In this document: positions 5,211 through 62,170 of the stretch, one piece after another
Layout of the letters: each line of letters starts with the position of its first letter
Numbering within the stretch: the first letter of the stretch is position 1
Assembly: GCA_964611205.1 (NCBI GenBank)
Contig: CAZSZB010000002.1
Location: 74,609-138,608 of the forward strand
Reading direction: 5' to 3'
Length of the DNA: 64,000 bases
Origin: an uncultured Candidatus Saccharibacteria bacterium
GTDB taxonomy: Bacteria; Patescibacteriota; Minisyncoccia; Phycocordibacterales; UBA918
Notes under the pieces: model-generated
What the model saw: only the letters and a program-made list of their open reading frames with translations
What the model was told of the DNA's origin: nothing
The model's database searches: none
Program-made: the position numbers and the translations under genes

Positions 5211-7607
5211 ATGAATACAAAGACTTCAAAAAAGACTCTGGTTATCGTTGAGTCCCCTGCCAAAGCCAAAACTATCGGTAAGTATCTTGGTAGTAACTAC
5301 ATCGTGAAGTCATCTATCGGACACGTTAGAGATTTACCTAAAAGTAACAAAGATGCAGTAGATATCGATAATGGATTTATTCCTCGCTACATCATTTCTC
5401 CAGGTAAAGAAAAAGTAATTAAGGAACTCCAGGGTGCTGCCAAGGAAGCTAAGGGGGTTCTCCTGGCAGCTGACCCTGACCGTGAAGGAGAGGCTATTGC
5501 GTGGCATGTAGCCGAACTGCTAAAAGATAGTAATAAAAATCTTAAACGAATAGTTTTTCATGAAATTACTGAACCAGCTGTGAAAGAAGCTCTAGCACAC
5601 CCGCGTGATATAGACATGCATCTTAAATCCGCCCAAGAAGCCAGACGAGTGCTAGACCGTCTTGTCGGCTATGATCTTTCTAGTTTGATCTGGAAGAAGG
5701 TTCGCTACGGATTATCTGCCGGGCGAGTGCAGTCTCCTGCTCTGCGTATCATAATGGAAAGAGAAAGAGAAATCAGAGCTTTCATTCCAGAAGATTTTTT
5801 CGTTCTGACCGCACACACCAAAAAAGATAAATTGGATATTCCTTTCGTCTGCTCAATAGAACCCAAAGATGAAGCTGAAGCTAAAAGGATTAAGAAAGTT
5901 GGTGAAGAAAATAAATGGGAAATTAAAAATATTAAAGAGAGTGAGGCAAAGCGTTCTCCGCGACCGCCCTTTACCACTTCAACCTTACAACAAGCAGCTT
6001 CTACGCGACTTGGTTTCTCACCGTCTCGCACCATGGGTGCTGCTCAAAAATTGTATGAGGCTGGTCATATCACTTACATGCGTACTGACTCTACCAACAT
6101 AAGTGATTCAGCTCTTCAACAAATATATAAGGTTATAAAAAATGAATACGGGAAAGAGTATCTCTCACCTCATACATATAAAACCAAAAGTAAATCGGCT
6201 CAAGAAGCCCATGAAGCAGTACGACCTTCTAACTTTGGTAAAAAAACAGCCGGCCTAACTAGTGATCAAAAATCTTTGTATAGTCTTATTTATGCCCGAG
6301 CTTTAGCTTCGCAAATGTCAGACGCAAAAATCAAAAGAACTAAAGTGCTAGCCAATATTCAAGAAGAAAAAGAAACTATTCCTGATTTTTCAGTCAATGG
6401 TTCACGGATTATTTTTGATGGTTGGCTAAAAGCCGATCCTAATGCCCGAGGTGAAGATGTTGAAGTGCCTAAATTGGCGATTGGAGACGCCCTTGAATTA
6501 AAAAATATAGAAATAGAAGGTAAGCAAACCCAACCACCGAATCGCTATTCGGAAGCTGGACTAATTAAAGAACTTGAAAAAAGAGGTATCGGACGACCTT
6601 CTACTTACGCTTCTATTATGAAAACGATCATTGATCGCGGTTATGTGGAAAAAGAAGGACGCACTTTAATCCCTACTGATACCGGTGATGTTGTTTCTTC
6701 TTTCTTGGAAAAGCATTTTCTAGAATATATTGATGATAACTTCACTAGCGAGATGGAAAATGAATTGGATGAGATCGCCAGCGGTAAAAGAACTTATGAA
6801 AAAACTTTAAATGATTTTTATAAACCATTCAGTAAGGCAGTTTTGGCCAAAGAAGACATTGAGAAATTAACTAACCTCGGTCAAGCGCCTAAGGAATTCA
6901 AATGTCCTATCTGTAAGAAAGATATGGTTATTAAACTCGGTCGAGGAGGAAAATTCCTTTCCTGTGAAAATTTCCCAGAATGTCATGGGGCTCGTACTAT
7001 TGAAGGTGAAGAATTAAAAGATAGCGAACCTATCGGTAATCACCCGGATACTGGTGAGCCAATCTTTGTTTTAGATGGACGTTTCGGACCCTACGTACAA
7101 TTAGGTGAAACTCCGGCTACCAAGGATGAGAACGGCAAAACTATTCCTGTGGCCAAACGTGGAGAAAAACCAAGACGGGCATCATTACCAGAAGGTACTA
7201 AACGTGAAGACATTACCCTCACTGAAGCAGTTAGATATCTTCTACTACCGCGTGAACTAGGAGAACATCCTGATACGGGCGAAGCTATATTAGCCAACGC
7301 TGGAAAATTTGGTCCCTATATAGTTCACGCTGGTGATTATAGGTCACTTAAAGGAGAGGATAATCCTTACGACATTACATATGAGAGAGCACTAAAAATA
7401 TTTAAAGAACCAAAACAGATGCGTAAAGGTGAGAAATTAGCTAAAGAATTAGGGATAAATCCAAATACGAAAAAACTAATCAACGTCTACGAATCAAAAT
7501 CAGGTTTATATCTACGTAAAGGTTTCAAAAGAGTCTCTCTACCAGATGATGTTGATTTGAAAAAATTCACTATTGAAGACGCAATAGAATTGTTGAAGAT
7601 AGGATAA
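5211..7607 (+). CDS. topA: DNA topoisomerase I
   Basis: The likely true start is MNTKTSKKTLVIVESPAKAKTIGKYLG (Toprim domain), not the TTG at 5166. It has the active-site region (TYMRTDST) and C-terminal zinc-ribbon repeats (CPICKKDM...CENFPEC). Confidence 0.95.
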   Translation: MNTKTSKKTLVIVESPAKAKTIGKYLGSNYIVKSSIGHVRDLPKSNKDAVDIDNGFIPRYIISPGKEKVIKELQGAAKEAKGVLLAADPDREGEAIAWHVAELLKDSNKNLKRIVFHEITEPAVKEALAHPRDIDMHLKSAQEARRVLDRLVGYDLSSLIWKKVRYGLSAGRVQSPALRIIMEREREIRAFIPEDFFVLTAHTKKDKLDIPFVCSIEPKDEAEAKRIKKVGEENKWEIKNIKESEAKRSPRPPFTTSTLQQAASTRLGFSPSRTMGAAQKLYEAGHITYMRTDSTNISDSALQQIYKVIKNEYGKEYLSPHTYKTKSKSAQEAHEAVRPSNFGKKTAGLTSDQKSLYSLIYARALASQMSDAKIKRTKVLANIQEEKETIPDFSVNGSRIIFDGWLKADPNARGEDVEVPKLAIGDALELKNIEIEGKQTQPPNRYSEAGLIKELEKRGIGRPSTYASIMKTIIDRGYVEKEGRTLIPTDTGDVVSSFLEKHFLEYIDDNFTSEMENELDEIASGKRTYEKTLNDFYKPFSKAVLAKEDIEKLTNLGQAPKEFKCPICKKDMVIKLGRGGKFLSCENFPECHGARTIEGEELKDSEPIGNHPDTGEPIFVLDGRFGPYVQLGETPATKDENGKTIPVAKRGEKPRRASLPEGTKREDITLTEAVRYLLLPRELGEHPDTGEAILANAGKFGPYIVHAGDYRSLKGEDNPYDITYERALKIFKEPKQMRKGEKLAKELGINPNTKKLINVYESKSGLYLRKGFKRVSLPDDVDLKKFTIEDAIELLKIG

Positions 7608-10829: not shown

Positions 10830-10911
10830 GCTGGAGTGGCGGAATTGGTATACGCGATGGATTCAAAACCCATTGCCTTCGGGCTTGAGGGTTCAAGTCC
10901 CTCCTCCAGCA
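10830..10911 (+). tRNA. tRNA-Leu (anticodon CAA), type II
   Basis: Acceptor GCTGGAG/CTCCAGC. D-arm GGCGGAATTGGTA is the tRNA-Leu hallmark. Anticodon loop TTCAAAA, variable-arm hairpin GCCTTCGGGC, T-loop GGGTTCAAGTCCC. CCA is not encoded. Confidence 0.8.
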
Positions 10912-10916
10912 CAAAT

Positions 10917-11012: not shown

Positions 11013-11660
11013 GTGACTAATTTTGAAAAACAGATCCTTGCTTACATTGTAGGGGTAGCATTAGGAGACGGCAATCTGTCCTGTCCAAACAAACGAACCA
11101 CGAGGCTCAGAATAACCTGTGATAATGCATACCCTAAATTAGGAAGAGAGATAAAGACTGCCCTCAGATTTCTTTTTCCCACAAATAAGATTTCGTACGT
11201 TAAAAGAAAAGAAACAAATTGCTTTGACATAAGTGTTTATTCCAATAGATTAAATGAGTATATTCCCTGGAAAGTCGGGCTCGGCCCTAAACATGTACAA
11301 AATGCACATGTACCAAGCTGGATATTGGAGAATGCTAAATATATCCGTCCCTGTCTTAAAGGTCTTATACAAACGGACGGTAGTATCTACAAAGATAGGG
11401 GCTATCTAATGGTAAATTTTAATAGCATTATTCAAATACTAGCTAACGATGTTAAGAACATGATGGAACAAATAGGCTACACTCCCCATATTTATAAGTC
11501 TATGCAAAATCAGGACGGCACAAATATACCATTCGTTTATCTAAGGATGTTCAAAATTTCATTCAAGAAATTAATCTTTCTAAAAAGTAATTCTTTAAAA
11601 CTTTTACTTATAATTTTCTTTATGAACAAAAAAGCATCCTTAGGGACGCTTTTCATTTAA
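11013..11660 (+). CDS. free-standing double-motif LAGLIDADG homing endonuclease
   Basis: Two LAGLIDADG motifs: LAYIVGVALGDGNL and LKGLIQTDGSIYKD. The gene is AT-rich and lies immediately downstream of tRNA-Leu(CAA). Confidence 0.8.
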   Translation: MTNFEKQILAYIVGVALGDGNLSCPNKRTTRLRITCDNAYPKLGREIKTALRFLFPTNKISYVKRKETNCFDISVYSNRLNEYIPWKVGLGPKHVQNAHVPSWILENAKYIRPCLKGLIQTDGSIYKDRGYLMVNFNSIIQILANDVKNMMEQIGYTPHIYKSMQNQDGTNIPFVYLRMFKISFKKLIFLKSNSLKLLLIIFFMNKKASLGTLFI

Positions 11661-15049: not shown

Positions 15050-15649
15050 ATGCTACTTGCAGAAAAACGCATCCGCCTCGACCGAATCAGCGCTATGCAG
15101 GCTGACAATCACGTCCAACTTTACGACCACCCTCATTTGCCCAATGCTGACTATGAAGCTGTCAATGGTTCGGTCTTCCTGGCTGGACCAACTTCTAGAG
15201 AATGCATTGCTGAGTACAACTGGCGCAGCGAAGCCACCTATTACCTGCGTAAGCAGGGATTCAAGGGGGTGATTTACGTACCCGAACCTGGTAAATCGGG
15301 TATTGCTCGCAGCGGCGATTTCACCGAGAAGGAATTCATTCATCGCTGGGAGTCAGATCGGCTCCTTTCGGCCACCTATGTGGTGTTCTGGATTCCACGC
15401 AACAAGCACGAACTTCTCGGACTGAACACAAACCTCGAGTTCGGAATTTGGCTCGGGAAACTCTCACACCTACCACAAAAGGAACGGGTGCGAAAGCTGT
15501 TCATCGGCTGGCCTAATACTGCCGAGCGCATGGGGCTCCCCCGCCACTACGCTGCTGACCACCCTGAAACTGGTGGTTACCACATCTACGGCAGCCTGGA
15601 CAACCTGTGCGAAGCTATTCACATGACCCATACCAACCACAACACCTGA
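15050..15649 (+). CDS. hypothetical protein on a high-GC island; weakly nucleoside 2-deoxyribosyltransferase-like
   Basis: 199 aa. The VFLAGPTS motif resembles the xYLAGP motif of the N-deoxyribosyltransferase-like Rossmann fold. GC is visibly higher than the flanks. The functional call is weak. Confidence 0.3.
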   Translation: MLLAEKRIRLDRISAMQADNHVQLYDHPHLPNADYEAVNGSVFLAGPTSRECIAEYNWRSEATYYLRKQGFKGVIYVPEPGKSGIARSGDFTEKEFIHRWESDRLLSATYVVFWIPRNKHELLGLNTNLEFGIWLGKLSHLPQKERVRKLFIGWPNTAERMGLPRHYAADHPETGGYHIYGSLDNLCEAIHMTHTNHNT

Positions 15650-15900: not shown

Positions 15901-16326
15901 ATGAAAATCCTTACAACCCTGACGTTTTCCACCCTCTTCCTTTTTTCACCGGTAGGTGCTACCAAAACTGAGGCCCAGTGTCTCTTGTGCGGGGCTGTTG
16001 GATTTGCCATCGGCTCTATACCCAATGAGCAAACCCCTGTTGACGATGGTAACGTCATCTATGTGGCTCCTCGCATCAGCGAAAGAATCGCCAATCCGCT
16101 GGCTGTTCGTTTTGCTTCGTCAGCTATGATGAACTTTTCGAACGAACAAGGAGACCGGGGAGGAATGAAGAACAGTTCCCTGGAAGAAATCTTCGCCGCT
16201 ACTGTCGCCGACTACCAGAAATATACTTTGCTCGAGGTAAAGCGGATTATCAATCCGCAAAACTACGGCAAAGCACAGTTCCTGTTCGTCTATATTGAGA
16301 AAGACAAGATATCTCCTCTCAAGTAG
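15901..16326 (+). CDS. secreted hypothetical protein (signal peptide) on the same high-GC island
   Basis: MKILTTLTFSTLFLFSPVGA is a signal peptide. A canonical SD (AAAGGAGG) lies 6 nt upstream of the ATG, and a possible TTGACA -35 sits at 15836. GC is higher than the flanks. Confidence 0.5.
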   Translation: MKILTTLTFSTLFLFSPVGATKTEAQCLLCGAVGFAIGSIPNEQTPVDDGNVIYVAPRISERIANPLAVRFASSAMMNFSNEQGDRGGMKNSSLEEIFAATVADYQKYTLLEVKRIINPQNYGKAQFLFVYIEKDKISPLK

Positions 16327-16514
16327 TGCCGAGTCACAATTAAAAAACAATCTTCAGTCTCAAATATATCTAACACACTGGACTGATGAGACTGAAAATA
16401 TCACTTTGAACCGCTTCCATTCTGGGAGCGGTCTTCTTTATTTTTCGGTAAAATATTGTGTATAAACCTGTGCAAAACTCCTGCATAAAGCTGTGAAATT
16501 GGTAGAATTAAGTA

Positions 16515-19500
16515 ATGAATACAACACAGGATGTTTACCATGCTAAAAAGGCATTTTATTGGGGTTTTTTATTAGTTTTTGTCGCTCTTTTTTTATTAAT
16601 TTTTAGCAATCCAGTTGAAGCTGGTTTGTTAGATGATGAATACTCAAAACCTCCAACCAAAGAAGCTACCAAAACTCAACAAACCAATACTCCCCAACAA
16701 AGTAACCCTACTGTTCAACCTGGCCCAGGCAGTCCTGGTTTTGAAGACCCTACCACCTCATCTCCATCCCCTTCCAAAAACGATTCTAAGAATGACTACA
16801 CTCAATCACAAAATGATAGTGCCTGGGATAGAGGTGACGATGATGGCGGGGGGAGCGGTTTAGGTAGTGGTCCTTCCAAAAACGATTCTAAGAATGACTA
16901 CACTCAATCACAAAATGATGGAGGGAGTGATAGTGGTAGTGATGGTGGAAGCGGACTAGGAAGACAACCACAAAAAAGTACATCCGAAATAATTGATAAT
17001 CGGGTAGAAGAAGAATCAGAAAAACAAAAAGGTTTTCTGGGTTCATTGAGAGACTCCCTGAAGAGTGCAGCTGTAAGCTGGTACAGTCGAGTTTTGGATT
17101 CCATTCCTCTCATTTCCAAAAAGCCTGAACCAAAACCGACCGACCTGACCTCAGCTTTAGGTTTAGAAACAGATGTTAAATCTAGTTATATACGAGTTAT
17201 AGATCCAGTTTCTCCAGGAATAGTCACCGGCGACTCGGGAACTGGTCAAGGTATACCAGTTCCCGAAAGACCAACAACCAGAAAGATTGATCCGATAACC
17301 AAAGGGAATATAGAAATATTGGTCGCTGCGGAGATTTTAGATGAGAACGGTTTTATCGATGTCGTATACAGCGATGGAAATGGTAACCTGCACCTCACAA
17401 GAGACCAAGTGGATGCTGGTGCTAGAATTACTGTTGAATATAATTGTGAGAATGGAGACGGAGGATGTAGTGCTCTTCCCTATGGTTATCTAGCAGGTGC
17501 TGGACAACCATCTGGTACTTATGTAGTAGAAACTCCAAGAAGCGGTAGTCAAATAGTTGGTGTGTCAGCTAAAGACAAATATGGTAACCAAGCTGCTAAG
17601 TATATAAGCGTGGTGGTTGACGGAACTCCACAATCGACTGACTTTAGACTAGATCCTGATTTTTTAGAAAATCGTGATACAAAAGTAGTAAAGACAGAAG
17701 AAGTTGTTTCCGATTACACTGATAACTGGACTCGTAACGATCCTGGCAGTTCTTATAGCTCGAGAGACAATGACGCACCAGGGATGACTTACGGAGATCC
17801 TTTAACTTTAAATAACGGAATTGGGGGTTTAATGCCACCAAATACTTCAGGGAAAAAATACCCTGATGGTTCAGATATTGAGAACTATCTAAGAGATCTT
17901 GAAACTGATCCTGATTCAGGGGTAAAAAAATCAACAGGGATTACTCCCCCTGCTCCAGAACAACCTCCAGCCAGTCCTGTTCCACCACAACCAACAAAAG
18001 ATGTGCCGAAATACGTAGATACTGACGGCTTTTTAGACAGTGACGGTGGAGCTAATAAAGTTGGTGGTGGATTCTGGGGAAATACTGTTGGCAAACTAGC
18101 TGAAGCAACTAGAGGAATTGTACAAAACATCTTACCGATTGGTCCGACCACCCGACCTAATAATAAGCCAACTGAAAGAGCGGATACTACCCCTATCGTA
18201 ACTGATGTAGAAGACTTGAGTCGTTATACTACTTATACAAGTGTAAACGAAGACGGAGAAACTGTTTTTTATCGACCAAGTACTCCTGGCTCAATGATAA
18301 GTATCACAAAATCCAACTTGGCAATCGCGGAAAAGGAATTAGCGGATGCAATTGCAGCTGGTGGAGATGAAAGGGGTATTAATGAAGCTCGACAAAAAGT
18401 AAACGAGATTAAAAATATATTGGATAATCCAAAGGGTGAAATATTCTCTGATGCAGACTACACAACTGCAGATCAGTTAGTTGTTACAGCAATAGGAAAT
18501 TCACGAGCTGCAATAGTAGCAAAATCTACCGACATTAGTCTCCCTCCTCCTCCTGCAAAAATATATTCTATAGACGAGTTACGTACTCTCACAAGTGGCA
18601 TGACCAAAGAAGAAATGTCGGCCTTTTTTACTGATTTAATTCTTCAAGGTTATGCCTCTGCAGAATCACGAAACCTAATCGAAGGAATACAACAAGAGCC
18701 CTGGGGTATTATTACAACCGACCCTAAGGTACCTATCTACTACCCTGGACTTAGTCCACGTGATCTTGCACGCATAGCTCAAGCAACTGGGCTTGAGATT
18801 ATGACAGAAGCGGAAGCTGATCGCGTAAATGATAGTCCTGAAGCAATAAACCTTACACCCAACCCACAACCAAATGAAACAACGACAGCTGCAGATCAAT
18901 TTGAAAACATGCTTGCTAACTCTAGGGATATTGCTCAAGAGAAGGCCGAAAAATGCGAGGGTTCCTGTAAGGGTTTCGTGACTGGAATCGGAAAAGATAC
19001 GACTATTGGAGATGATGGTAGAGTTCAGATACAAGGTTGGAGAAACCCAGCGACAGGAGAAGATATCCAACCAACTTACGCAAGACACTTTCCTGAATCT
19101 GATATTAGTGAAATGACATACTGGGACTACTCTCATGTTACCAGAATGAAGGGTAAGGACTCCGGAAAAGTGTTGTCCGATGAAGAGTTTGCTGCTCTTG
19201 CTAGTGAAAAAGCTTCTGAAGTCGTACCTTACCGTGCCTATAGTCAATCTGAAGAAACTAAACCTGAAACCCTCACAGACAGAATCGCTTCACTTCCAAG
19301 GGATACGGCAAAAACACTTGGTAATATTGCACGTTTTGTTGCAGATAAATTCTCTCCTGAACCAACCACGCGTTCTCCAAAAGTTGAGTATTCTGATGAG
19401 GAGCTTGATCTAATGACCAGAGTTGTATTAGCTGAAACAGATAGTATCAGAAACGCAGATGGTTCAATTAATCTTGAGGGAGTTCAGGCAGTTGGAGAAG

Positions 19501-22397
19501 TTATGAAGTACCGCATGCTTTCTCGAAATCACCCCGACTCTCTTGAAGAGGTTATATTTGAAGGTGCTGATGGAGATACGCGCCCAAAGGGTCTTCAGTT
19601 TACTGCTGTTGGCGAAGACAGGAGAGGTCCATATCTAAGAGAAAGCCGTGGACCAATGAGTCCAGACTATAATGAGGCTCGGGAACGTTTACGTGAAGTA
19701 CTCGAAGGTAAAGCTCCGCCTATTGCTGTTGATAACGAAGGGCGTGGCGTACTGAATTATGGAAACATTGGTGCAATAATGGACGGATCATCTGGAGCCT
19801 CAGGATCAACCAAACAAGCATTTGGAAATATGGCTGATGACTCTGATGTACTAGTAATAGCAGATGCTGATAATCCAAATGACTCACATACCTTCGGAAC
19901 AATATTTTGGGGAGGAATCGAACCCGACCGTCCACTGCTCACTACAATAGCGGAAAAAGTAGGAGGTCTCGTTGGTTGGGCAGCACGTCAGGTTGGGATT
20001 ACAAAGATTGCAGAACGTGCACTCCCAGAACTCGAAGAAGCTAGTAAGATTAAAACTGTCGAAGAAGCAACAGAAGTAATTGCACAGCGAGAAAGAGATC
20101 TTGTGGCTCTGGAAGACAAAGCATTGCGTATGCATGAGACTCTTGAACTTGCAGGTGAACATGATCAATTACGAACAGTAGTGGAAACAGCTGGAGCAGT
20201 GACCGATGAATTAAATACTGCAATAGGACGTGCCCGAGCGGAACGTGACGAGATGGAAAGAATATGGCTTGCAGATGTGCTTAGTGGTCGAGAAACTCTC
20301 AGACCGGAAGTAGTCGGAGCAGTTGATTCAACATATGGTGCCGTTGAGCGTTTAGAAACTATGAGAGAAGAAGCGCTAATAGCTGTAGCTAACGGGGACT
20401 TGATAAGTGCGAAAGCAATCCAGGGTGATGCAGATAAATACTCGACTGCAGTTAATACCTTAATGAATGCTGTGTCTAATACCTCAATTAGTGTAGCAGA
20501 TATAGCTATTTCTCATAATCATACTGGAGAAAATAAAAACGGTTTTGCACAAATGACTAATGGTACAGTCTTTTCCGTCCCAGGTGATGGTCGACCTGGC
20601 AGAAAACACGATGGGTTTGATTATGGAACTAATCGAGGTGATCCATGGGTAGCAGCACCGGTAGCAGGCACGATAACAAGCTGTGGGGATGGGGGTGGTC
20701 TGGCTGGAGGAACATGTAGTCTTGTTCCCGATAATCCAGCTAAAGATTGTGATGGAGCAAGCACTTGCGTGATTCAGATTATGCATGTTGAAGGTATTGT
20801 TGCACCAAATACTCGAGTGGAAGCTGGTCAAATCATTGCTCATACTGGTGGAGATAGGTCTACTCTATGGGGCCTAGTTACTATACTCGCTGAAAAACAA
20901 GCTGGACGAGAACTGACTCCGGAAGAGCGTGACCTAGCAGCATGGGAAATATATGATAAAAATAATGGAGTGCTAACTTCTGAACTAAAAGCTCAATTTG
21001 CTGCCGAAGGTTTGTCTAATGCATATTCTGGTAATCCAAATGGAGAAGAAATTACCCCACCCCATCCGCATATTCAGATCAAGTGGAACGACAGAGTACT
21101 AAGAGGATCAAGCGAATCCGATAAAGCTCGACTTGAGAGAATTTTTGGTATAGAAAAAGGCTTCTTAAGTTCGATAGACCAAGAGATTCCATTCCCAACT
21201 CTTGATGATCTTATTAGAGAGGCAGAAGTAACTTCAGATAAACGGGCTGCTATCGATGCTCGTAATGCACGCGAGATTCTTCCAAGTGATAGTCCTATAC
21301 TACTGGAAATTGAAGCAAATGCAGAAAAAGCCATCTCTCTAATGAACGATATTAGAGATACCTACACTGGCGAATTCCAAGGAGTTAATATAGACGGATC
21401 TGGTAAAGGTAACGCTCAGGTGGCTAAGTTAGCAGAGCAAGCTCAGGCCCTTGCGGACCGAAACGCAGAATTGCTTGCACAAGCTGAGGCAGAAAGTGCA
21501 CTTGAACGTATTAATCCAAGAGGAACACCCGCCGGCAATCCTCCAAGAACTGGTATCGTGGGCGGTATAGCTGACGCTGTGACTAACGGCTTAGGAACTC
21601 TACGAGACTTCTTCTCCGGCGGAAGTTCTTCTGGTGGAGGCGCTGGTAGTCCGAGTGACGACAGAAGGGATGATTCTGGTAGTGATAGCCCTCGTGGCTC
21701 TGACAGTGGAAAAGGAGCTGAAGATAATCTAGTCTCTGTCGGAGTCACCGACAGCAAGAGTGGCACTATACTTAAAGAGTACAATGACCTACTTAGTCAA
21801 TTAACTCCAACTCAACCTGTACCTAATGAAACGCTACCAGAAATAGTAGATGATGAAGATGTTGTGTTTACATACATTGTGTCAACTAAAAACGAACCGA
21901 CCAGTGCCAAGACTACCCTACTAGCTCCAAATCTAAATGATAGAAGTTACTCTTACTCACTTCTAGCTGACCAATTAACAGACAATGATTCTGCTAACAC
22001 CATCATAAATAATTCTGCAGATACAAAAATAATAAAAGCTAAAGCAAATAGTTTTGGTATCGATGAAGTAGAATCATCTTCTTACCAGACCAGGACTAGC
22101 AAGAACGGCCTAGCGGAAGACAAGCTTATCTACACAATCAGCACTAAAGATGGTGACCGAGTTGAACTCCAGTTACCAGCCGTTGTTGATAAAGAAACTG
22201 CTAGAATAACCTTTGCTAACGCTGGCTTTGTTGGCGATGAATACCTACAGCTCATCAGCGAAGCAGACTACGCAGGCGAAGCTAAGATTGAAGAAGAAAA
22301 AGGCTGGTTTAGTAGAATATGGGAAATAATAAAATCCACCTTTACTAGAGATGAATCTCCTGAAGAAGATTATACAAATCTTCCAGTAGAAGTTTAG
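16515..22397 (+). CDS. giant (1960 aa) membrane-anchored multidomain peptidoglycan hydrolase: N-terminal TM, low-complexity repeats, SleB/Hydrolase_2-like domain, coiled coils, M23 (LytM) peptidase domain
   Basis: N-terminal TM helix (FYWGFLLVFVALFLLIFSNPVEAG). SleB-like region (LDLMTRVVLAETD...GVQAVGEVMKYRM...EVIFEGADGD...FTAVGEDRRGPY, about nt 19390-19920). M23 motifs (RKHDGFDYGTNRGDPWVAAPVAGTI...VIQIMHVEGIVAPNTRVEAGQIIAHTGG, about nt 20560-20880). Long heptad-like segments rich in E/A/R/L. Confidence 0.7.
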   Translation: MNTTQDVYHAKKAFYWGFLLVFVALFLLIFSNPVEAGLLDDEYSKPPTKEATKTQQTNTPQQSNPTVQPGPGSPGFEDPTTSSPSPSKNDSKNDYTQSQNDSAWDRGDDDGGGSGLGSGPSKNDSKNDYTQSQNDGGSDSGSDGGSGLGRQPQKSTSEIIDNRVEEESEKQKGFLGSLRDSLKSAAVSWYSRVLDSIPLISKKPEPKPTDLTSALGLETDVKSSYIRVIDPVSPGIVTGDSGTGQGIPVPERPTTRKIDPITKGNIEILVAAEILDENGFIDVVYSDGNGNLHLTRDQVDAGARITVEYNCENGDGGCSALPYGYLAGAGQPSGTYVVETPRSGSQIVGVSAKDKYGNQAAKYISVVVDGTPQSTDFRLDPDFLENRDTKVVKTEEVVSDYTDNWTRNDPGSSYSSRDNDAPGMTYGDPLTLNNGIGGLMPPNTSGKKYPDGSDIENYLRDLETDPDSGVKKSTGITPPAPEQPPASPVPPQPTKDVPKYVDTDGFLDSDGGANKVGGGFWGNTVGKLAEATRGIVQNILPIGPTTRPNNKPTERADTTPIVTDVEDLSRYTTYTSVNEDGETVFYRPSTPGSMISITKSNLAIAEKELADAIAAGGDERGINEARQKVNEIKNILDNPKGEIFSDADYTTADQLVVTAIGNSRAAIVAKSTDISLPPPPAKIYSIDELRTLTSGMTKEEMSAFFTDLILQGYASAESRNLIEGIQQEPWGIITTDPKVPIYYPGLSPRDLARIAQATGLEIMTEAEADRVNDSPEAINLTPNPQPNETTTAADQFENMLANSRDIAQEKAEKCEGSCKGFVTGIGKDTTIGDDGRVQIQGWRNPATGEDIQPTYARHFPESDISEMTYWDYSHVTRMKGKDSGKVLSDEEFAALASEKASEVVPYRAYSQSEETKPETLTDRIASLPRDTAKTLGNIARFVADKFSPEPTTRSPKVEYSDEELDLMTRVVLAETDSIRNADGSINLEGVQAVGEVMKYRMLSRNHPDSLEEVIFEGADGDTRPKGLQFTAVGEDRRGPYLRESRGPMSPDYNEARERLREVLEGKAPPIAVDNEGRGVLNYGNIGAIMDGSSGASGSTKQAFGNMADDSDVLVIADADNPNDSHTFGTIFWGGIEPDRPLLTTIAEKVGGLVGWAARQVGITKIAERALPELEEASKIKTVEEATEVIAQRERDLVALEDKALRMHETLELAGEHDQLRTVVETAGAVTDELNTAIGRARAERDEMERIWLADVLSGRETLRPEVVGAVDSTYGAVERLETMREEALIAVANGDLISAKAIQGDADKYSTAVNTLMNAVSNTSISVADIAISHNHTGENKNGFAQMTNGTVFSVPGDGRPGRKHDGFDYGTNRGDPWVAAPVAGTITSCGDGGGLAGGTCSLVPDNPAKDCDGASTCVIQIMHVEGIVAPNTRVEAGQIIAHTGGDRSTLWGLVTILAEKQAGRELTPEERDLAAWEIYDKNNGVLTSELKAQFAAEGLSNAYSGNPNGEEITPPHPHIQIKWNDRVLRGSSESDKARLERIFGIEKGFLSSIDQEIPFPTLDDLIREAEVTSDKRAAIDARNAREILPSDSPILLEIEANAEKAISLMNDIRDTYTGEFQGVNIDGSGKGNAQVAKLAEQAQALADRNAELLAQAEAESALERINPRGTPAGNPPRTGIVGGIADAVTNGLGTLRDFFSGGSSSGGGAGSPSDDRRDDSGSDSPRGSDSGKGAEDNLVSVGVTDSKSGTILKEYNDLLSQLTPTQPVPNETLPEIVDDEDVVFTYIVSTKNEPTSAKTTLLAPNLNDRSYSYSLLADQLTDNDSANTIINNSADTKIIKAKANSFGIDEVESSSYQTRTSKNGLAEDKLIYTISTKDGDRVELQLPAVVDKETARITFANAGFVGDEYLQLISEADYAGEAKIEEEKGWFSRIWEIIKSTFTRDESPEEDYTNLPVEV
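16766..16918 (+). repeat. tandem duplication (48-nt unit, two copies about 105 nt apart) inside the giant gene
   Basis: CCTTCCAAAAACGATTCTAAGAATGACTACACTCAATCACAAAATGAT occurs at 16766-16813 and 16871-16918. It encodes PSKNDSKNDYTQSQND twice. Confidence 0.8.
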
Positions 22398-34912: not shown

Positions 34913-36209
34913 AGGTTAATTTACGAATAGCGTCCGACACTGCATTATCCACCCGACTTCTACCAGATACCACATCTTCTACCATAGTAGCAAATATTTC
35001 ATTGCTGATTTTAGGATTTGGATCAAGCCAACCGCGAGCCACTAAAGCAGCTTTGGTTATCACCTGCCGGTAAGGACTAACGTCTTCTATGGTCAACGCT
35101 GTTCGCAGAGGTGAGGCCATATTCAACGACTGAACTAGGGCAGGGGCATATTGTTCTGAAGCCAGCGTTAAGGCAGCTGCGTAAGCTCCCTGTTTGTTAG
35201 TGGCGGCAGTAGGAATAGCGAATCCATAGAAATCACCATAGGTACGGAAGACTGTGGCTGAAGAACCTTGAGGTATGGTGGAGACATCAAAATTCAAATT
35301 TGGGTTTTTATCGGCTATGTCTCTAACCTCAGAACCAAAACCAAAATAAATTGCTAAATCTTCGGCAATAAAAGCATTCTTAGAACTAGCTTGGGCTCGA
35401 TTCCAAGTATAAAGTGGGCTGGCAGTGTCACTAAAGCGAGTGAAGAAATCCAAAGAAGCCATTACTGGTGGTCTGGCAGAGCTGGAGTCAGCATAGTTCA
35501 TCATTACTTCATAGCCTTTTTCGTCCTGGGTTACTAGTTTACTCCCAGACTGCATCGCTAAACTCATCAAAATAGCTTTAGCATTATCAATGTTGCTAAA
35601 CTCTCCCATAGCAACGGCACTTTGAATAATATTACGACTAGTGTCCCGGATGGTTAAACTTGGTACGACTTTGCTCAGCAGTGTTTCCCAATTACTAGGT
35701 GCCGTTGCGATACCTCCAGTAGCAAAAAGATCACGGTTCCAGTACATAATTAGCGGATCGATAGCAAAAGGAATAGCGTAAACACCATTAACCATCATAA
35801 AAATCTCTGCCCCATCTATATAAGTATCCCTGAAGGCTCTCTCAGATAAAGAAGTGTACGGTATCGGTGTTAATTTTGCTCGATGCTTTACTAGACTATC
35901 TGCTTTAAGAATAATCAAATCTGGAGACCGCCCCTCTGCAACTGCATTAACAAAAACATCATCAAAAGATCTCTCGTCTATGTATTGATATTTGACTACA
36001 TTAAAGTCAGGACTATCAATTGATATCTTGTCGAAAATATTACCCATCACCGATGGATTAAGGGTGCCCCAAATAACTACTTGATCACCGTAAGTATAGT
36101 TAGCTTTTTTTATAGAAGGACTGTAGGTTTTAACTAAAATGAGAGCGAGAATCGCCAAGAAGACGAAGATTCCTAAAAGAGCTATTTGAAATGGTCTGAT
36201 GTTTGTCAT
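34902..36209 (-). CDS. membrane-anchored extracellular solute-binding protein (SBP family 1, MalE-like); no permease or ATPase nearby
   Basis: An N-terminal TM anchor, then VVIWGTLNP...PDLIILKADS...YAIPFAIDPLIMYWNRDLF, typical of family-1 sugar SBPs. The 3' end overlaps the start of pilin paralog 4 by 11 nt, implying translational coupling. Confidence 0.6.
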   Translation of the reverse strand: MTNIRPFQIALLGIFVFLAILALILVKTYSPSIKKANYTYGDQVVIWGTLNPSVMGNIFDKISIDSPDFNVVKYQYIDERSFDDVFVNAVAEGRSPDLIILKADSLVKHRAKLTPIPYTSLSERAFRDTYIDGAEIFMMVNGVYAIPFAIDPLIMYWNRDLFATGGIATAPSNWETLLSKVVPSLTIRDTSRNIIQSAVAMGEFSNIDNAKAILMSLAMQSGSKLVTQDEKGYEVMMNYADSSSARPPVMASLDFFTRFSDTASPLYTWNRAQASSKNAFIAEDLAIYFGFGSEVRDIADKNPNLNFDVSTIPQGSSATVFRTYGDFYGFAIPTAATNKQGAYAAALTLASEQYAPALVQSLNMASPLRTALTIEDVSPYRQVITKAALVARGWLDPNPKISNEIFATMVEDVVSGRSRVDNAVSDAIRKLTFEY

Positions 36210-42748: not shown

Positions 42749-43363
42749 ATGAGTTCTTTAGAAGTTAAAAAAACAATTGAAAACGAAGACCAGATGGAGC
42801 CTTCTGTAAAGAACAAGAGTTTTGTTCTGGAGCTATCACAATTCATTATTCTAGCCATCTTGATAGTAGCTCCCATCAGAATGTTCGTAGCTCAACCATT
42901 CTTAGTCTCTGGTGCTTCTATGGAAAACACCTTTGATAATGGTGATTATCTGATAATAGACCAACTCACTTATCACTTTAATGACCCTAAGCGCGGTGAT
43001 GTCATTATTTTCCGCTACCCTAAAGACCCTTCCAAGTTCTTCATTAAACGCATTATAGGCATACCTGGAGACACTATCAATATCGAAGATAATGTAGTCA
43101 CACTAACCACAAGCACCGGAGCAAGTCAGATTCTAGACGAACCTTATGTCAAAGCCATGAACAATAATAATCACTACAATGTAACTCTCGACGAAGGCAA
43201 TTATTTTGTGATGGGAGACAATCGTGACCGTAGCTCAGATTCCAGAGTTTGGGGAGTCTTAGATAGAGAGAACATTATCGGTCGCACATTTTTACGACTC
43301 TTCCCTTTTGACCACATCTCTACCTTCCCCGGATCAGCACACATAAACTTATCAGATTCATAA
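42749..43363 (+). CDS. lepB: signal peptidase I
   Basis: An N-terminal TM, then SGASMENTF (the Ser nucleophile box), RGDVIIFRYP, KRIIGIPGD and GDNRDRSSDSR (box E). Confidence 0.85.
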   Translation: MSSLEVKKTIENEDQMEPSVKNKSFVLELSQFIILAILIVAPIRMFVAQPFLVSGASMENTFDNGDYLIIDQLTYHFNDPKRGDVIIFRYPKDPSKFFIKRIIGIPGDTINIEDNVVTLTTSTGASQILDEPYVKAMNNNNHYNVTLDEGNYFVMGDNRDRSSDSRVWGVLDRENIIGRTFLRLFPFDHISTFPGSAHINLSDS

Positions 43364-55802: not shown

Positions 55803-56042
55803 GCTGGTCTGATAGAGACGATTGCGCTACCTTTTGGTAGTGAGGAAAGTCCGAACACAGGCATGATTTATCATGCAGACAGGTAGCGGGTAACCCCCGT
55901 CGTGAGTAATCACCGAGGTGCGAACAGAAACGGCCAATGCGAAAGCAAAGGACATCCATTTATGGATGAGGTCTTGGGTAACCAAGAAATGAAACGGCTA
56001 AATCCTTACCCCTGTGCAAGGCCGTGCCCAGCCGTACTTTTT
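55803..56042 (+). ncRNA. rnpB: RNase P RNA (bacterial type, unusually compact at about 240 nt)
   Basis: CR-I GAGGAAAGTCCGAACACAGGCA (P4 5' strand). GCGGGTAACCCCCGTCG (a GGUAAC loop as in E. coli P6/P7). GTGCGAACAGAAACGGCC (compare E. coli GUGCAACAGAGAGCAAACCGCC, P8/P9). CR-IV-like AATGAAACGGCTAAATCC (P4 3' strand). The 5' GCTGG can pair with the 3' CCAGC at 56026-56030 to form P1. The P10-P14 region appears strongly reduced. The boundaries are approximate. Confidence 0.6.
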
Positions 56043-56540
56043 GCATATACAAACGAAAACATCAAATTCACCTTGTGTGTTAGAGATAGATTCCATTATG
56101 GTATGCAAAAAGTACGGCTGGGAGAGCCGCTCGAGCTAGTTGGTAACAACTAGCCTAGATAAATAATCGTCATCGCTCTGCGAAACAGAATTCGGCTTAC
56201 TATATCAGTCCAACAAAATGACCCGACTCGCCTTACGGCGAGTCGGGTCATTTTATATCTCATTTATCACCTAAGTGATAAATAAAAAGTATTATTACAG
56301 AGATGTATTAATATCTTCTTCATCAGATACTTCTACAGTTCCCATATCATCTACCACTACTGGTTCCTCAGATGAAGTAGCCGGTGTCTCACCCATATCA
56401 ACTGAGCTCATCGGCATATCTGAAACCTCTTCCTTTTTCTTACCAAAAAGTCCGAAAAACATACTGCATATTATTATCCTATAAACGTTGTTATTGTATC
56501 ATATCTCCTCCAAGCAAAACTATAGTATAGTGATATTAAT

Positions 56541-58222: not shown

Positions 58223-58294
58223 GCGCGATTAGCTCAGTGGTAGAGCGCTCCGTTGACATCGGAGAGGTCGAAAGTTCAATTCTTTCATCGCGCA
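58223..58294 (+). tRNA. tRNA-Val (anticodon GAC)
   Basis: Acceptor GCGCGAT/ATCGCGC, D-arm TAGCTCAGTGGTAGAGCG, anticodon stem CTCCG/CGGAG, loop TTGACAT, T-arm GAAAG-TTCAATT-CTTTC. Confidence 0.85.
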
Positions 58295-58306
58295 CAAATC
58301 ATAAAT

Positions 58307-59170
58307 ATGGAACAACCACTTAAAGACATTGTTATTATCTACCACGCGGATTGTCGTGATGGTTTTGGGGCGGCTTATGCAGCTTGGAAAAAATTTGGCG
58401 ATAATGCTTCCTATATACCAAGCAGGGCGGGTGACGAAGAGCTCCCCGATGGCCTTACAAATAAAGAAATCTATATTGTTGACTATTCTTATAAAAAAGA
58501 AACATTGCAACAGCTTTTGGATACAAACAAATCCGTAGTTGTTATTGATCACCACCAAACAGCCCGAGAAGCAGTCGAGAGCTTTAGCCAAAACATTTTT
58601 GACAACGACCATTCAGGAGCCGTGCTAGCTTGGCAGTACTTCCACCCTGACACAACTATACCTCCGCTCCTTGAATATGTAGAAGACCATGATTTATGGC
58701 GCTTTGCCCTACCAGAAAACCGGGAGTTTAATGTCGCCCTAGGAGAGTACCCGATGACTTTTGAAAGCTGGGATAAGCTCATCGCAGATTTAAAGAACAC
58801 CGACAATCTTATCAATTTTATTGCCAAAGGTTCCCTCTTAGCCAAGTTTGAAGATAAGTTAGTCGCTCGACTTATGATGTACAAAGAACGAGTACTTTTT
58901 GAAGGATACGAAGTCTGGGCTATCAACGCTTCACGAATCTACCGTTCTATTCTCGGAAACCAGCTAGCTGAACTGAACTTAGCAGAAGAACAAGAACCGA
59001 TTGGTATAGTGTATTATCACGGCAATGGCGGGGTAAATATTTCGTTGCGCAGCATCGGAGAAACAGACGTAGCAGCCATCGCTGAGAAATACGGTGGTGG
59101 CGGACATAAGAACGCCGCCGGTATCGAGGTAGCGAATTTCTCAGAGCTCCCTTTTACCTTTCTCTCTTAA
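58307..59170 (+). CDS. nrnA: DHH/DHHA1 phosphoesterase (NrnA-like oligoribonuclease/pAp phosphatase)
   Basis: DHH motifs (IIYHADCRDGFGAA, VVIDHHQTA) and the DHHA1 GGGH motif (KYGGGGHKNAAG). The start was chosen at MEQPLKD. Confidence 0.75.
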   Translation: MEQPLKDIVIIYHADCRDGFGAAYAAWKKFGDNASYIPSRAGDEELPDGLTNKEIYIVDYSYKKETLQQLLDTNKSVVVIDHHQTAREAVESFSQNIFDNDHSGAVLAWQYFHPDTTIPPLLEYVEDHDLWRFALPENREFNVALGEYPMTFESWDKLIADLKNTDNLINFIAKGSLLAKFEDKLVARLMMYKERVLFEGYEVWAINASRIYRSILGNQLAELNLAEEQEPIGIVYYHGNGGVNISLRSIGETDVAAIAEKYGGGGHKNAAGIEVANFSELPFTFLS

Positions 59171-60688: not shown

Positions 60689-62170
60689 TTAATCCAAAAT
60701 CAGCAACAATAAAGAAGCAATTGCTATCCCGAAAAACGGCCACCAAACACACGGAAATCCGAAAAATAGTGAGGTGAGAGTGAATAACAGTGCCCAAGCA
60801 CCGAAATAGATATTCCTCGAGCGAGAATCCCAAAAAGTTTGGCTAATATAGTGAGCTCGATAATCATAAGCTGTCATAACTACCCAAGCAAAAAGGAATA
60901 CGTACCAAATATAGCCAATTATATTCAACCAATAAGATACCAGCAGAAGAACCGTATAGACAGCAGAGAAAATTAATTGCCGGTTGAAAAATGGTCTAAA
61001 TTCAGAATGTTCGCGATTCAGACGATCAGCCAATACACTCCACGTCAGAGAAATAAATATTAAAATCAGTAGCCATATCAGAGTACACACACCCGTCTCT
61101 GAGAGCGGAGAATCATCCAACCAGTCAGTTATTCCTTTAACCATACCGTCTACTTTACCTTCATCAGTAGTCTCGGTGTCGGTATTTGTTGCTGCTCCTA
61201 ACACCGCTCCAGCCGGCAAGGTAGAACCAAAACCATCTCCACTACCTGCGAAGAAATTTGTACTAGCTCCCGCCACTGCACCTCCTGGAATAATAAAACG
61301 CAAAGCTTTACCAACACTAAAATCATCATCAGTATCTTCCCTGCTAGCTGGTCGACATTCATAAGTACCAGACTCTCCCACCGTGACTATCACTATATGT
61401 TCTTCACTATCATTCTCCCGCTCAGCTACAGCAAACTCATAACCAAAGTATGGTTCGGTTGGATTAAGGTCAAAAGGTCCGTTGGCAAGATTTCCACAAA
61501 CCAAATAGGTGGTAGCTCCTCTATTAGTCTGCCAAGCAATAGTAGCACTGCTGTCTAAAGGATTTACCGCTACAACTGTTTCGTTAAACAGTCTAAAATT
61601 ACTTGTTCCGCCACCTCCTGTACCACCGCCACCACCGCCTGGAGGTGTTGTAATCGTCGTGGTAGAGGTATCTCCATCATCACAAAGTACGCTACCGCCA
61701 GAAAAACCAACACACAAACCGAAGCCCATAGTTTTAACCTGATAACTATTATCTGTGGCAGTATCCAGAGAAGCCGTGAAATTATAAGTGCGCGACTGTC
61801 CAGCTGATAGAGTTCCTAAAGGAATAGCTGGCCCAGAAAATAAGCTAGCAAAATAATCGTTGTAGTAATTACTGGTCGGACCATCGACTTCTAAACGCAT
61901 AACAGCTGCTAAACCATCGGAGTATTCGTCTTTAGTATCAAAGTAAACAGACTCATTATTTGGACCATTGTTAACGACAGTAACGGTACGTGAGGTACTG
62001 AGACCAGGCGCAACATTTACATCATAAAAAAGAGGGTCGTTTTGGAAACTCACATTCAATCCAGCCGCGTTAGCGATGGTTGTGAGACCAAAAAGTAATA
62101 AGAATAAAGTGCTGTAGATAACTATCTTTGGTTGTAGGAGAATCTTTATCATAATCTTATTCTGTCTCAT
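60689..62170 (-). CDS. cell-surface protein with a TasA/camelysin-like N-terminal domain, Gly/Thr linker and a C-terminal multi-TM anchor
   Basis: A signal peptide, then NVSFQNDPLFYDVNVAPGLSTSRTVTVVNNGPNNESVYF (camelysin-like pattern NL.PG....f.v.N.G). A GGGGGTGGGG linker. The last ~130 aa form 3-4 TM helices rich in W/F/Y. Confidence 0.5.
   Translation of the reverse strand: MRQNKIMIKILLQPKIVIYSTLFLLLFGLTTIANAAGLNVSFQNDPLFYDVNVAPGLSTSRTVTVVNNGPNNESVYFDTKDEYSDGLAAVMRLEVDGPTSNYYNDYFASLFSGPAIPLGTLSAGQSRTYNFTASLDTATDNSYQVKTMGFGLCVGFSGGSVLCDDGDTSTTTITTPPGGGGGGTGGGGTSNFRLFNETVVAVNPLDSSATIAWQTNRGATTYLVCGNLANGPFDLNPTEPYFGYEFAVAERENDSEEHIVIVTVGESGTYECRPASREDTDDDFSVGKALRFIIPGGAVAGASTNFFAGSGDGFGSTLPAGAVLGAATNTDTETTDEGKVDGMVKGITDWLDDSPLSETGVCTLIWLLILIFISLTWSVLADRLNREHSEFRPFFNRQLIFSAVYTVLLLVSYWLNIIGYIWYVFLFAWVVMTAYDYRAHYISQTFWDSRSRNIYFGAWALLFTLTSLFFGFPCVWWPFFGIAIASLLLLILD

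Follow-up and report, generated by a model that had tools for sequence, protein, structure and literature searches.

Exported proteins that join a glycan-cleaving to a peptide-cleaving enzyme are known from conjugative elements, where PrgK (pCF10), TraG (pIP501), TcpG (pCW3), and CwlT (ICEBs1), each of 300-900 residues, combine an SLT or muramidase domain with a CHAP or NlpC/P60 domain and are encoded inside a type IV secretion system (T4SS) operon. The synergy of paired wall cutters is known from these two-domain hydrolases and from phage lysins, and conserved flanks around fast-diverging, swapped cassettes are a pattern familiar from polymorphic effectors, endolysins, and tail lysins, which have to match variable foreign targets. 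In polymorphic toxins and effector-immunity pairs, the variable toxin domain is C-terminal and the cognate immunity gene lies directly adjacent. Here, we compare with these systems a giant gene at positions 16515-22397 (+ strand) of a 64,000-nucleotide stretch of contig CAZSZB010000002.1 (the window), which comes from an uncultured bacterium of the Minisyncoccia, a class of the phylum Minisyncoccota, alias Patescibacteria or Candidate Phyla Radiation (CPR). Its 1960-residue product (P0001, hereafter the giant protein) very probably contains two genuine peptidoglycan-hydrolase domains, and it belongs to a rare mosaic family in which putative glycan-cutter and peptide-cutter cassettes from non-homologous enzyme families are interchangeable.

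The idea that such bacteria degrade foreign walls has precedents. Surface proteins abound in CPR genomes, and among them are lytic transglycosylases that have been suggested to weaken the host envelope (PMC11665869); S. epibionticum cannot grow epibiotically without its peptidase and lysozyme homologs, according to the passage of PMC12102498 that cites this work. The export of wall-degrading enzymes by CPR bacteria against their hosts has already been proposed (PMC11665869; PMC12102498), and oversized proteins with wall-degrading domains are already known in predatory uncultured bacteria (bioRxiv 10.1101/2023.11.21.568195). The route that CPR/Patescibacteria take through the host wall is largely unknown, and earlier candidates have mostly been small enzymes near a T4SS.

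The giant gene is a single unbroken open reading frame (ORF) with an ATG start, comprising 1960 codons plus stop, and is the largest ORF of the window, of which it occupies 9.2%, in line with the roughly 9% given by the first-pass annotation, which had been made from the letters alone. The product has a mass of ~210 kDa and is very acidic. An identical 1960-residue protein is recorded from an ENA metagenome assembly (contig k141_743972; 165,888 bp), so a local assembly artefact is unlikely. A hydropathy scan finds one hydrophobic segment alone, at residues ~12-34, where the annotation had placed a transmembrane anchor; the segment is there, yet it is more likely a cleavable Sec signal peptide (residues 1-36; 16515-16622, +) with a basic n-region, an 18-residue hydrophobic core, and a VEA/G cleavage-type site. 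We favor probable cleavage because AXA-type sites follow the hydrophobic segment in the giant protein and in both of its homologs introduced below (TQA/R in P0002 and SYA/R in P0003), whose layout is alike. Export of the giant protein is thus likely, and the eight cysteines, all of which fall into local pairs, as do all cysteines of P0002 and P0003, are consistent with an extracellular protein. The window also holds a signal peptidase I gene (42749-43363). Calls of signal peptides, coiled coils, promoters, and amphipathic helices, here and below, are made by simple sequence heuristics.

The glycan-cutting cassette is a Hydrolase_2 (SleB/CwlJ-type) domain at residues 955-1140 (19377-19934, +), which includes the predicted catalytic glutamate E974 (19434-19436). 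Scanning the whole protein against Pfam places Hydrolase_2 at residues 988-1068 with 20.5 bits, below the cut-off of 27, and when residues 931-1150 are scanned in isolation, PF07486 is the sole Pfam match, with 24.4 bits (E=4.7e-5). Deleting a 9-residue insert (residues 1018-1026) in silico raises the score above the cut-off, to 29.9 bits (E=8.9e-7). Only the N-terminal two-thirds of the family profile (positions 5-66 of 100) is matched. A two-sequence profile built from the giant protein and the corresponding stretch of P0003 aligns by hhalign with seven phage "cell wall hydrolase/SleB" proteins at 92.6% probability (P=4.6e-7), and E974, in the stretch VVLAETD, which fits the N-terminal (A/S)E(A/T) motif of the family, falls on the glutamate of SSEAKGE or YFEARGE in the phage enzymes and of IAGEIG in P0003. 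A custom hidden Markov model (HMM) of the seven phage enzymes ranks the giant protein and P0003 at the top of 60 proteins, weakly (13 and 10 bits). A search of PDB sequences with the Hydrolase_2 profile returned no significant match, and AlphaFold2, given the two-sequence alignment, modeled the segment with a predicted local distance difference test (pLDDT) score of 33. The SleB-like segment proposed at first pass is therefore borne out as a very divergent family member, its native score lying under the cut-off and its catalytic glutamate being kept.

The peptide-cutting cassette is a Peptidase_M23 domain at residues 1345-1530 (20547-21104, +), broken by a cysteine-rich loop and by a 64-residue helical insert (residues 1447-1510; 20853-21044) that sits between IIAHTGG and PPHPHIQI. 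The whole-protein scan detects it at residues 1364-1447 with 18.9 bits against a cut-off of 28.7; in isolation, residues 1331-1560 match PF01551 and no other Pfam family, with 24.7 bits (E=2.6e-5), and removal of the 64-residue insert in silico brings the score above the cut-off, to 33.0 bits (E=7.1e-8), over profile positions 2-92 of 96. The insert-deleted domain is 36% identical over 134 residues (47 bits) to the N-terminal M23 domain found in lysin A of mycobacteriophage Barkley26. The zinc-ligand motif H1365-DGF-D1369 and the central catalytic H1424 are in register with E. coli MepM and with this lysin, and the second zinc-ligand motif, H1517-P-H1519, joins the alignment after deletion of the insert. 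The first-pass annotation had recognized the domain and had proposed a check of its HxxxD/HxH residues but had ended it near nt 20880, whereas it runs to about nt 21100, with the HxH motif following the helical insert. In the PHROG database, the endolysin family phrog_880 is the sole match of the protein (E=6e-4), on the M23 stretch. A single-sequence AlphaFold2 model of the segment reaches a pLDDT of 43, the insert being helical in the only part predicted with moderate confidence.

Searches of PDB sequences with the central region and the M23 segment gave nothing significant, and an NCBIfam scan of the giant protein gave no match. Both PF07486 and PF01551 are thus found where they had been proposed, with native scores below the curated cut-offs and above them once the inserts are deleted; lineage-specific inserts appear to let the two domains slip below standard annotation thresholds. 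All catalytic residues looked for are intact (E974, H1365, D1369, H1424, H1517, and H1519), and the two domains are apparently active, keeping the residues that inactive members of these families tend to lose.

The family to which the protein belongs is very small. A word-indexed search of 5.8 billion proteins with the full-length query returned only the giant protein itself and P0002 (1428 residues), and an exhaustive HMMER search of 1.84 billion protein representatives with a profile of the N- and C-terminal modules added one member, P0003 (1753 residues, E=8e-40), so that the family counts three members among these representatives. Both relatives come from CPR metagenome-assembled genomes (MAGs). 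A scan of genome contigs found the P0002 locus alone; IMG/VR viral contigs held no relative, JGI metagenome contigs held none for the family and none for P0003 itself, and tblastn at E<=0.01 found no match in 72,556 plasmids or 50,697 phages. A further candidate, P0004 (4488 residues), was rejected as a spurious match through repetitive sequence.

P0002 lies at the orthologous, syntenic locus (L001) of a 'Minisyncoccia bacterium' MAG, in the order relA-parB-ahpC-miaA-pilin-small ORF-giant-clpB-aminotransferase-infB. The flanking proteins of the two genomes are 55-88% identical, whereas the giant protein and P0002 share only residues 106-403 (36% identity) and 1756-1958 (37%). The stretch between these regions of P0002 holds an SLT lytic transglycosylase domain (E=1.9e-16) and a Peptidase_M15_3 domain (25.7 bits when scanned alone, against a cut-off of 23.2), with the SLT motif ES and the M15 motifs SxHxxGxAxD and HID kept. 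P0003, which is encoded in a different, non-syntenic housekeeping setting, combines the N-terminal module with a Hydrolase_2-like domain (E=0.003; IAGEIG...VINRAAS...QYSF), followed by a helical spacer, an M15-like domain, and a C-terminal module that are homologous to those of P0002. The predicted glycan cutter and peptide cutter are accordingly Hydrolase_2 and M23 in the giant protein, SLT and M15 in P0002, and Hydrolase_2 and M15 in P0003, and one plan is common to all three members: signal peptide, spacer, N-module, glycan-cleaving enzyme, helical spacer, metallopeptidase, C-module.

The end modules of this plan are new, and the enzyme domains they enclose in the giant protein stand at the margin of detectability in Hydrolase_2 and M23, as far as profile comparison can tell. 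Searches with the N-module and the C-module gave no Pfam match and no PDB match. The N-module (residues 150-405; 16962-17729, +) consists of a predicted amphipathic helix followed by a beta-rich region with a cysteine pair, carries the motifs PTDLTSALG, ALPYGY, and ENRDTxVVKTEE, and is 36% identical to that of P0002 and 29% to that of P0003. The C-module (residues 1746-1960; 21750-22394, +), 37% identical to that of P0002, comprises a ~75-residue unit with TKDGD...ITFAxAGFxGDEY, an amphipathic helix called by hydrophobic moment, and a conserved terminal LPV. The ~75-residue unit is apparently a small extracellular domain not described before. Written more generally as ...YxIxTKDGxxxEVxxPxxVxxExxxxxFxxxGFxG..., it is tandemly repeated in P0005 and P0006 (E=1e-4 against the whole library), which are secreted PKD-domain proteins of other metagenomes. 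P0006 also gives a very weak PepSY_2 match (E=0.039), which is a lead only, of note given the SleB-YpeB precedent.

The remaining segments would serve as spacers and linkers. Composition marks a low-complexity S/D/G/N/K-rich spacer (16632-16994, +) that contains a duplicated 16-residue unit, PSKNDSKNDYTQSQND, encoded by two exact 48-nt copies (16770-16817 and 16872-16919). The first-pass annotation had called these copies a tandem repeat; they are interspersed, 102 nt apart from start to start, and Tandem Repeats Finder (TRF) makes no call on them. Downstream of the N-module, a P/G-rich linker (residues 406-560) leads, again by composition, into a putative middle region (residues 561-950; 17730-19364, + for both) with the motif CEGSC, which matches no Pfam family above its cut-off and is weakly similar, at residues 747-903, to residues 668-804 of P0003. 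The two enzymes are separated by a helical, heptad-like spacer (residues 1150-1336; 19962-20522, +), and a second helical spacer (residues 1545-1666) with a G/S/D-rich linker (residues 1667-1745) follows the M23 domain (21147-21749, + for both). A crude heuristic for heptads, together with composition, finds heptad-like sequence only at residues 1172-1336 and 1595-1666, ~12% of the protein. The heptad-like stretches noted at first pass thus exist, yet not at the length then ascribed to them, and they read as spacers rather than as dominant coiled coils.

On balance, and by a little more than an even chance, we favor the reading that the giant protein is an exported two-enzyme peptidoglycan hydrolase whose target is probably the wall of a host or neighbor and which acts on its own, not via a T4SS. 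After export, the protein would probably be cleaved from its signal peptide, and the end modules would position it, perhaps by binding wall, cell surface, or membrane, with the amphipathic helix and LPV at the C-terminal end. The two tethered enzymes would then cut glycan strands and peptide cross-links in one patch of peptidoglycan and open a local hole, the likeliest target being the wall of a host or neighboring bacterium at the episymbiont contact site. Because the flanks are 55-88% identical while the end modules stand at ~36% and the catalytic cassettes have been replaced altogether, the locus appears to be under selection to match a variable non-self substrate, and it is this pattern that favors a foreign wall.

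Several points weigh against this reading. The cassette swap is seen in three members, two of which come from syntenic close relatives, and GC content at third codon positions (GC3) is flat along the gene, without sign of recent cassette import. The native Pfam scores of both domains fall short of the curated cut-offs, the inserts to be deleted were chosen by eye from alignments, and both AlphaFold2 models are poor, leaving the folds as predictions only. The sole cultured member of the Minisyncoccia lives as a parasite on an archaeon that has no murein (PMC12281837), so that we assume, rather than know, the host here to be bacterial. The choice between a foreign and the cell's own wall as substrate, as well as activity, localization, and expression, rests on reasoning from sequence.

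The most serious competitor is a housekeeping autolysin that remodels the cell's own peptidoglycan for daughter-cell separation, for turnover, or to make room for pili or other envelope-spanning structures. The gene sits stably amid housekeeping genes, syntenic in two genomes; GlmS, FtsA, and FtsZ are encoded in the window and attest to wall synthesis and a conventional mode of division; growth-related hydrolase complexes such as RpfB-RipA typically join a glycan cutter to an endopeptidase; and the strongly conserved promoter region described below suggests regulated, non-accessory expression. However, housekeeping hydrolases are usually small and conserved, whereas here flanks of 55-88% identity surround end modules of 36% and catalytic domains exchanged for non-homologous ones, and with three members in 1.84 billion representatives the family cannot serve a growth function general to CPR bacteria. 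We therefore consider an autolysin unlikely, though it deserves to be kept in view. Less probable still is a non-catalytic surface or structural protein, in which degenerate wall-binding modules of the EnvC/NlpD M23 type would be part of a large adhesin. Domains that score below their Pfam cut-offs and contain large inserts, adhesin-like disordered and helical spacers with unmatched end modules, and structure predictions without a confident fold would all suit such a protein. Yet H1365, D1369, H1424, H1517, and H1519, which are lost in degenerate M23 proteins, are all present, as is the catalytic glutamate of the Hydrolase_2 domain; the relatives keep the SLT 'ES' and M15 'SxHxxGxAxD...H' motifs; and the swapping of enzyme types within one bond class argues that activity is under selection, so that we hold this explanation to be very improbable. 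A phage tape-measure protein or tail lysin in a prophage or remnant is the least probable of all and effectively refuted. Its large size, its helical stretches, and its embedded lysin domains recall some tape-measure proteins, such as that of mycobacteriophage TM4 (PMC1796659), and its weak best phage matches are lysins. Nevertheless, the 64-kb window holds no phage genes, the flanking clpB, IF-2, miaA, and ahpC genes are syntenic in a second genome, the protein bears a Sec signal peptide, no PHROG tail family matched it, the endolysin family being its only PHROG match, and no viral relative was found in IMG/VR or by tblastn at E<=0.01 against the 50,697 phages. The first-pass preference against a tape-measure protein in an intact prophage has thus held up.

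The remaining alternative, and the one toward which the first-pass annotation had leaned, is a T4SS-associated wall-breaching hydrolase of the VirB1/PrgK/TraG/TcpG/CwlT type that would make a passage through the wall for a T4SS or a VirB2-like pilus. As in monoderm conjugation hydrolases, an N-terminal hydrophobic segment precedes two lytic domains, and five T4SS_pilin-like ORFs, as annotated, are present in the window, two of them below the Pfam cut-off. One (PF18895; 13921-14385, -) lies 2.1 kb upstream of the giant gene in divergent orientation, with a putative functional link, and is conserved in the syntenic locus; four more stand in tandem at 33360-34912 (-). Some patescibacterial VirB1 homologs carry M23 domains (PMC12102498). 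Against this, no VirB4, VirD4 (type IV coupling protein, T4CP), VirB6, or VirB3 gene was found in the 64-kb window (58 ORFs), on the 18.6-kb contig of P0002, or in the flanks of P0003 (1.7 kb upstream, 10 kb downstream), so that the synteny search for such neighbors came up empty at each of the three loci. The pilin-like gene is divergent, is parted from the giant gene by tRNA-Tyr and two other genes, and is absent from the P0003 locus; a terminator-like hairpin and a putative promoter of its own isolate the giant gene from its upstream neighbor; and the protein shows no similarity to plasmid-encoded proteins at E<=0.01. Its 1960 residues exceed the known T4SS hydrolases two- to sixfold in size. 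In Patescibacteria, moreover, VirB2-like pilin genes and arrays are widespread and often distant from virB4, and VirB1 is lacking from most of the genomes that have VirB2 homologs (PMC12102498). The T4SS reading is thereby weakened, and we judge it improbable. Of the first-pass proposal of a wall-breaching component rather than a housekeeping autolysin, the part that survives is a non-phage, wall-degrading protein with two peptidoglycan-hydrolase domains in a reduced, CPR-type genome, a relative of the 'Minisyncoccia bacterium' MAG; the secretion or pilus part has fallen away, and the host-attack idea is still plausible on different evidence, namely, the cassette swap at an orthologous locus.

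The pilin-like genes have features of their own. The ortholog of the nearest one in L001 (6128-6868, -; 55% identical) carries a C-terminal Peptidase_M15_3 fusion, which hints that small VirB2-like membrane proteins can carry wall enzymes. An exchange of M15 domains between the L001 neighbors finds no support, as the M15 domain fused to the pilin and that of P0002 are not close relatives. The four tandem paralogs at 33360-34912 (110-148 residues) lie directly downstream of a solute-binding gene (34902-36209), and their array resembles the VirB2 arrays of Patescibacteria (PMC12102498), without a virB4 nearby.

The giant gene is set in an ordinary chromosome, the window comprising dus, serS, dprA, topA, relA/spoT, parB, ahpC, miaA, clpB, a class-V aminotransferase gene, infB, rbfA, gyrA, ftsA, ftsZ, and glmS, together with nine tRNAs and the RNase P RNA. 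It is convergent with the downstream clpB and is split from an upstream 141-residue ORF by a terminator-like hairpin (16410-16432, +; 10-bp stem and T-run), an equivalent of which is present in L001. The segment between hairpin and start codon contains a putative promoter/operator region (16457-16514, +), which is unique within the window and ~90% identical to L001 8107-8162; the conservation of these ~60 nt contrasts with the 36% identity of the proteins and with upstream genes that are unrelated between the two syntenic genomes. An extended -10 element, TGnTAGAAT, at 16500-16508 (TGnTAAAAT in L001) ends 7 nt 5' of the ATG, which points to a probably leaderless mRNA, and three TGTG(T/C/A)A repeats at 16458, 16470, and 16492 could be an operator.

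The 141-residue protein encoded upstream (15901-16326, +) has a signal peptide, and its counterpart in position and strand, a 166-residue signal-peptide protein at L001 7549-8049, is unrelated to it; neither has a Pfam, PHROG, or PDB match. These small secreted proteins are possibly cassette-specific inhibitor or immunity candidates, with membership in the system putative. A different protective partner had been suggested at first pass in the MliC-like inhibitor at 50130-50870 (+). The protein is there, with MliC and META domains and adjoining a gene for a VIT-family iron transporter; it lies 28 kb from the giant gene, and MliC proteins are inhibitors of c-type (GH22) lysozymes rather than of SleB-type or M23 enzymes, which leaves a self-protection role unsupported. 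One may speculate that the 141-residue protein is the better candidate. The combination of MliC and META is unusual for a CPR genome.

A more far-reaching proposal, which we regard as doubtful in its entirety, is that the locus represents a new class of episymbiont wall-opening effector. Delivery, anchoring, or aiming of the protein would fall to its end modules, and an exchangeable internal cassette would be fitted to the peptidoglycan chemotype of the current host, so that the locus would determine host range. The small upstream proteins would then be cassette-specific inhibitors, and the leaderless promoter/operator would switch on at host contact.

A few further observations concern the surroundings. 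A nucleoside 2-deoxyribosyltransferase-like gene (15050-15649, +) lies between the pilin and giant genes and is absent from the L001 locus. A free-standing LAGLIDADG_3 homing-endonuclease-like ORF (11013-11660, +), 100 nt 3' of tRNA-Leu(CAA) (10830-10912), looks like a mobile insertion because it is likewise absent from the syntenic locus. The RNase P RNA is of bacterial class A (55805-56216, +; 121 bits), and an 83-residue ORF within it (55902-56153) is spurious; tRNA-Val (58223-58295, +) overlaps the predicted start of the ORF at 58253-59170, whose true start is probably further downstream. Two adjoining secreted proteins of ~500 residues are encoded at 60689-63704 (-), one with a Lamin Tail Domain and the other with a weak DUF11 match, and add to the large surface proteins of this small genome. 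At the P0003 locus (L006), side features have the coordinates 311-1107 and 7191-7475; two divergent paralogous proteins of ~100 residues, each with a coiled coil and a transmembrane segment, are encoded upstream of P0003, with a tRNA gene between the pair and P0003, and directly after P0003 comes a truncated fragment of a Y1 transposase.

The locus offers a testable candidate for wall entry, in which two complementary wall-cutting activities are predicted in one exported protein with unmatched end modules. It also amounts to a natural experiment, one chromosomal locus having been fitted with different enzyme pairs, which lends itself to asking whether the choice of enzymes follows the wall chemistry of the host. 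Were the protein only a self-directed autolysin, it would be an unusual but ordinary enzyme.

Set beside known systems, the protein resembles each in part. With the SleB/CwlJ family, it shares the N-terminal catalytic half, the catalytic glutamate, and the motif PDS(I/L)xEV(I/V)F...QF(S/T), and it differs by its inserts, its embedding in a giant chain, and its occurrence in a non-spore-former. The SleB-YpeB system is not reproduced, as the protein has no PG_binding_1 match and the gene no ypeB-like neighbor, the organism being a CPR bacterium; a search of the literature library found no report linking SleB with CPR taxa. The HxxxD motif, the central histidine, and the HxH motif of the M23 families (LytM, lysostaphin, and MepM) and lysin A are all kept, whereas the 64-residue helical insert between the last beta-strand region and HxH and a four-cysteine loop set the giant protein apart from them. 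In polymorphic toxins, the variable domain is C-terminal, while the variable enzyme cassette of the giant family is internal. Like the TM4 Tmp-type tape measures (PMC1796659), the giant protein is a long chain with helical stretches and embedded wall-degrading domains; unlike them, it has a Sec signal and a chromosomal housekeeping setting, without tail genes or viral relatives. In concept, it is close to the giant genes of Omnitrophota (bioRxiv 10.1101/2023.11.21.568195) and to the surface lytic enzymes of CPR bacteria (PMC11665869), each being an oversized or exported peptidoglycan-degrading protein of an ultrasmall or host-dependent bacterium, yet it has no detectable sequence relationship to them, is much smaller than the Omnitrophota giants, belongs to a family of three members only, and bears marks of its own in the conserved end modules and the swapped cassette.

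The comparison with PrgK, TraG, TcpG, and CwlT is the closest in function, all having an N-terminal hydrophobic segment and glycan-cleaving and peptidase domains in one exported chain, and PrgK also having a LytM/M23-type domain, as the giant protein does. The giant protein departs from them in its length of 1960 residues, its pairing of Hydrolase_2 with M23, its novel end modules, and its own putative promoter and terminator-like hairpin, and its gene has no T4SS ATPase or channel gene nearby and its sequence no plasmid match. It thus resembles both the two-domain T4SS hydrolases and the modular phage lysins in predicted function, yet departs from the genetic context that defines each, and its closest kin are the two CPR proteins in which the same end modules enclose other pairs of wall cutters.

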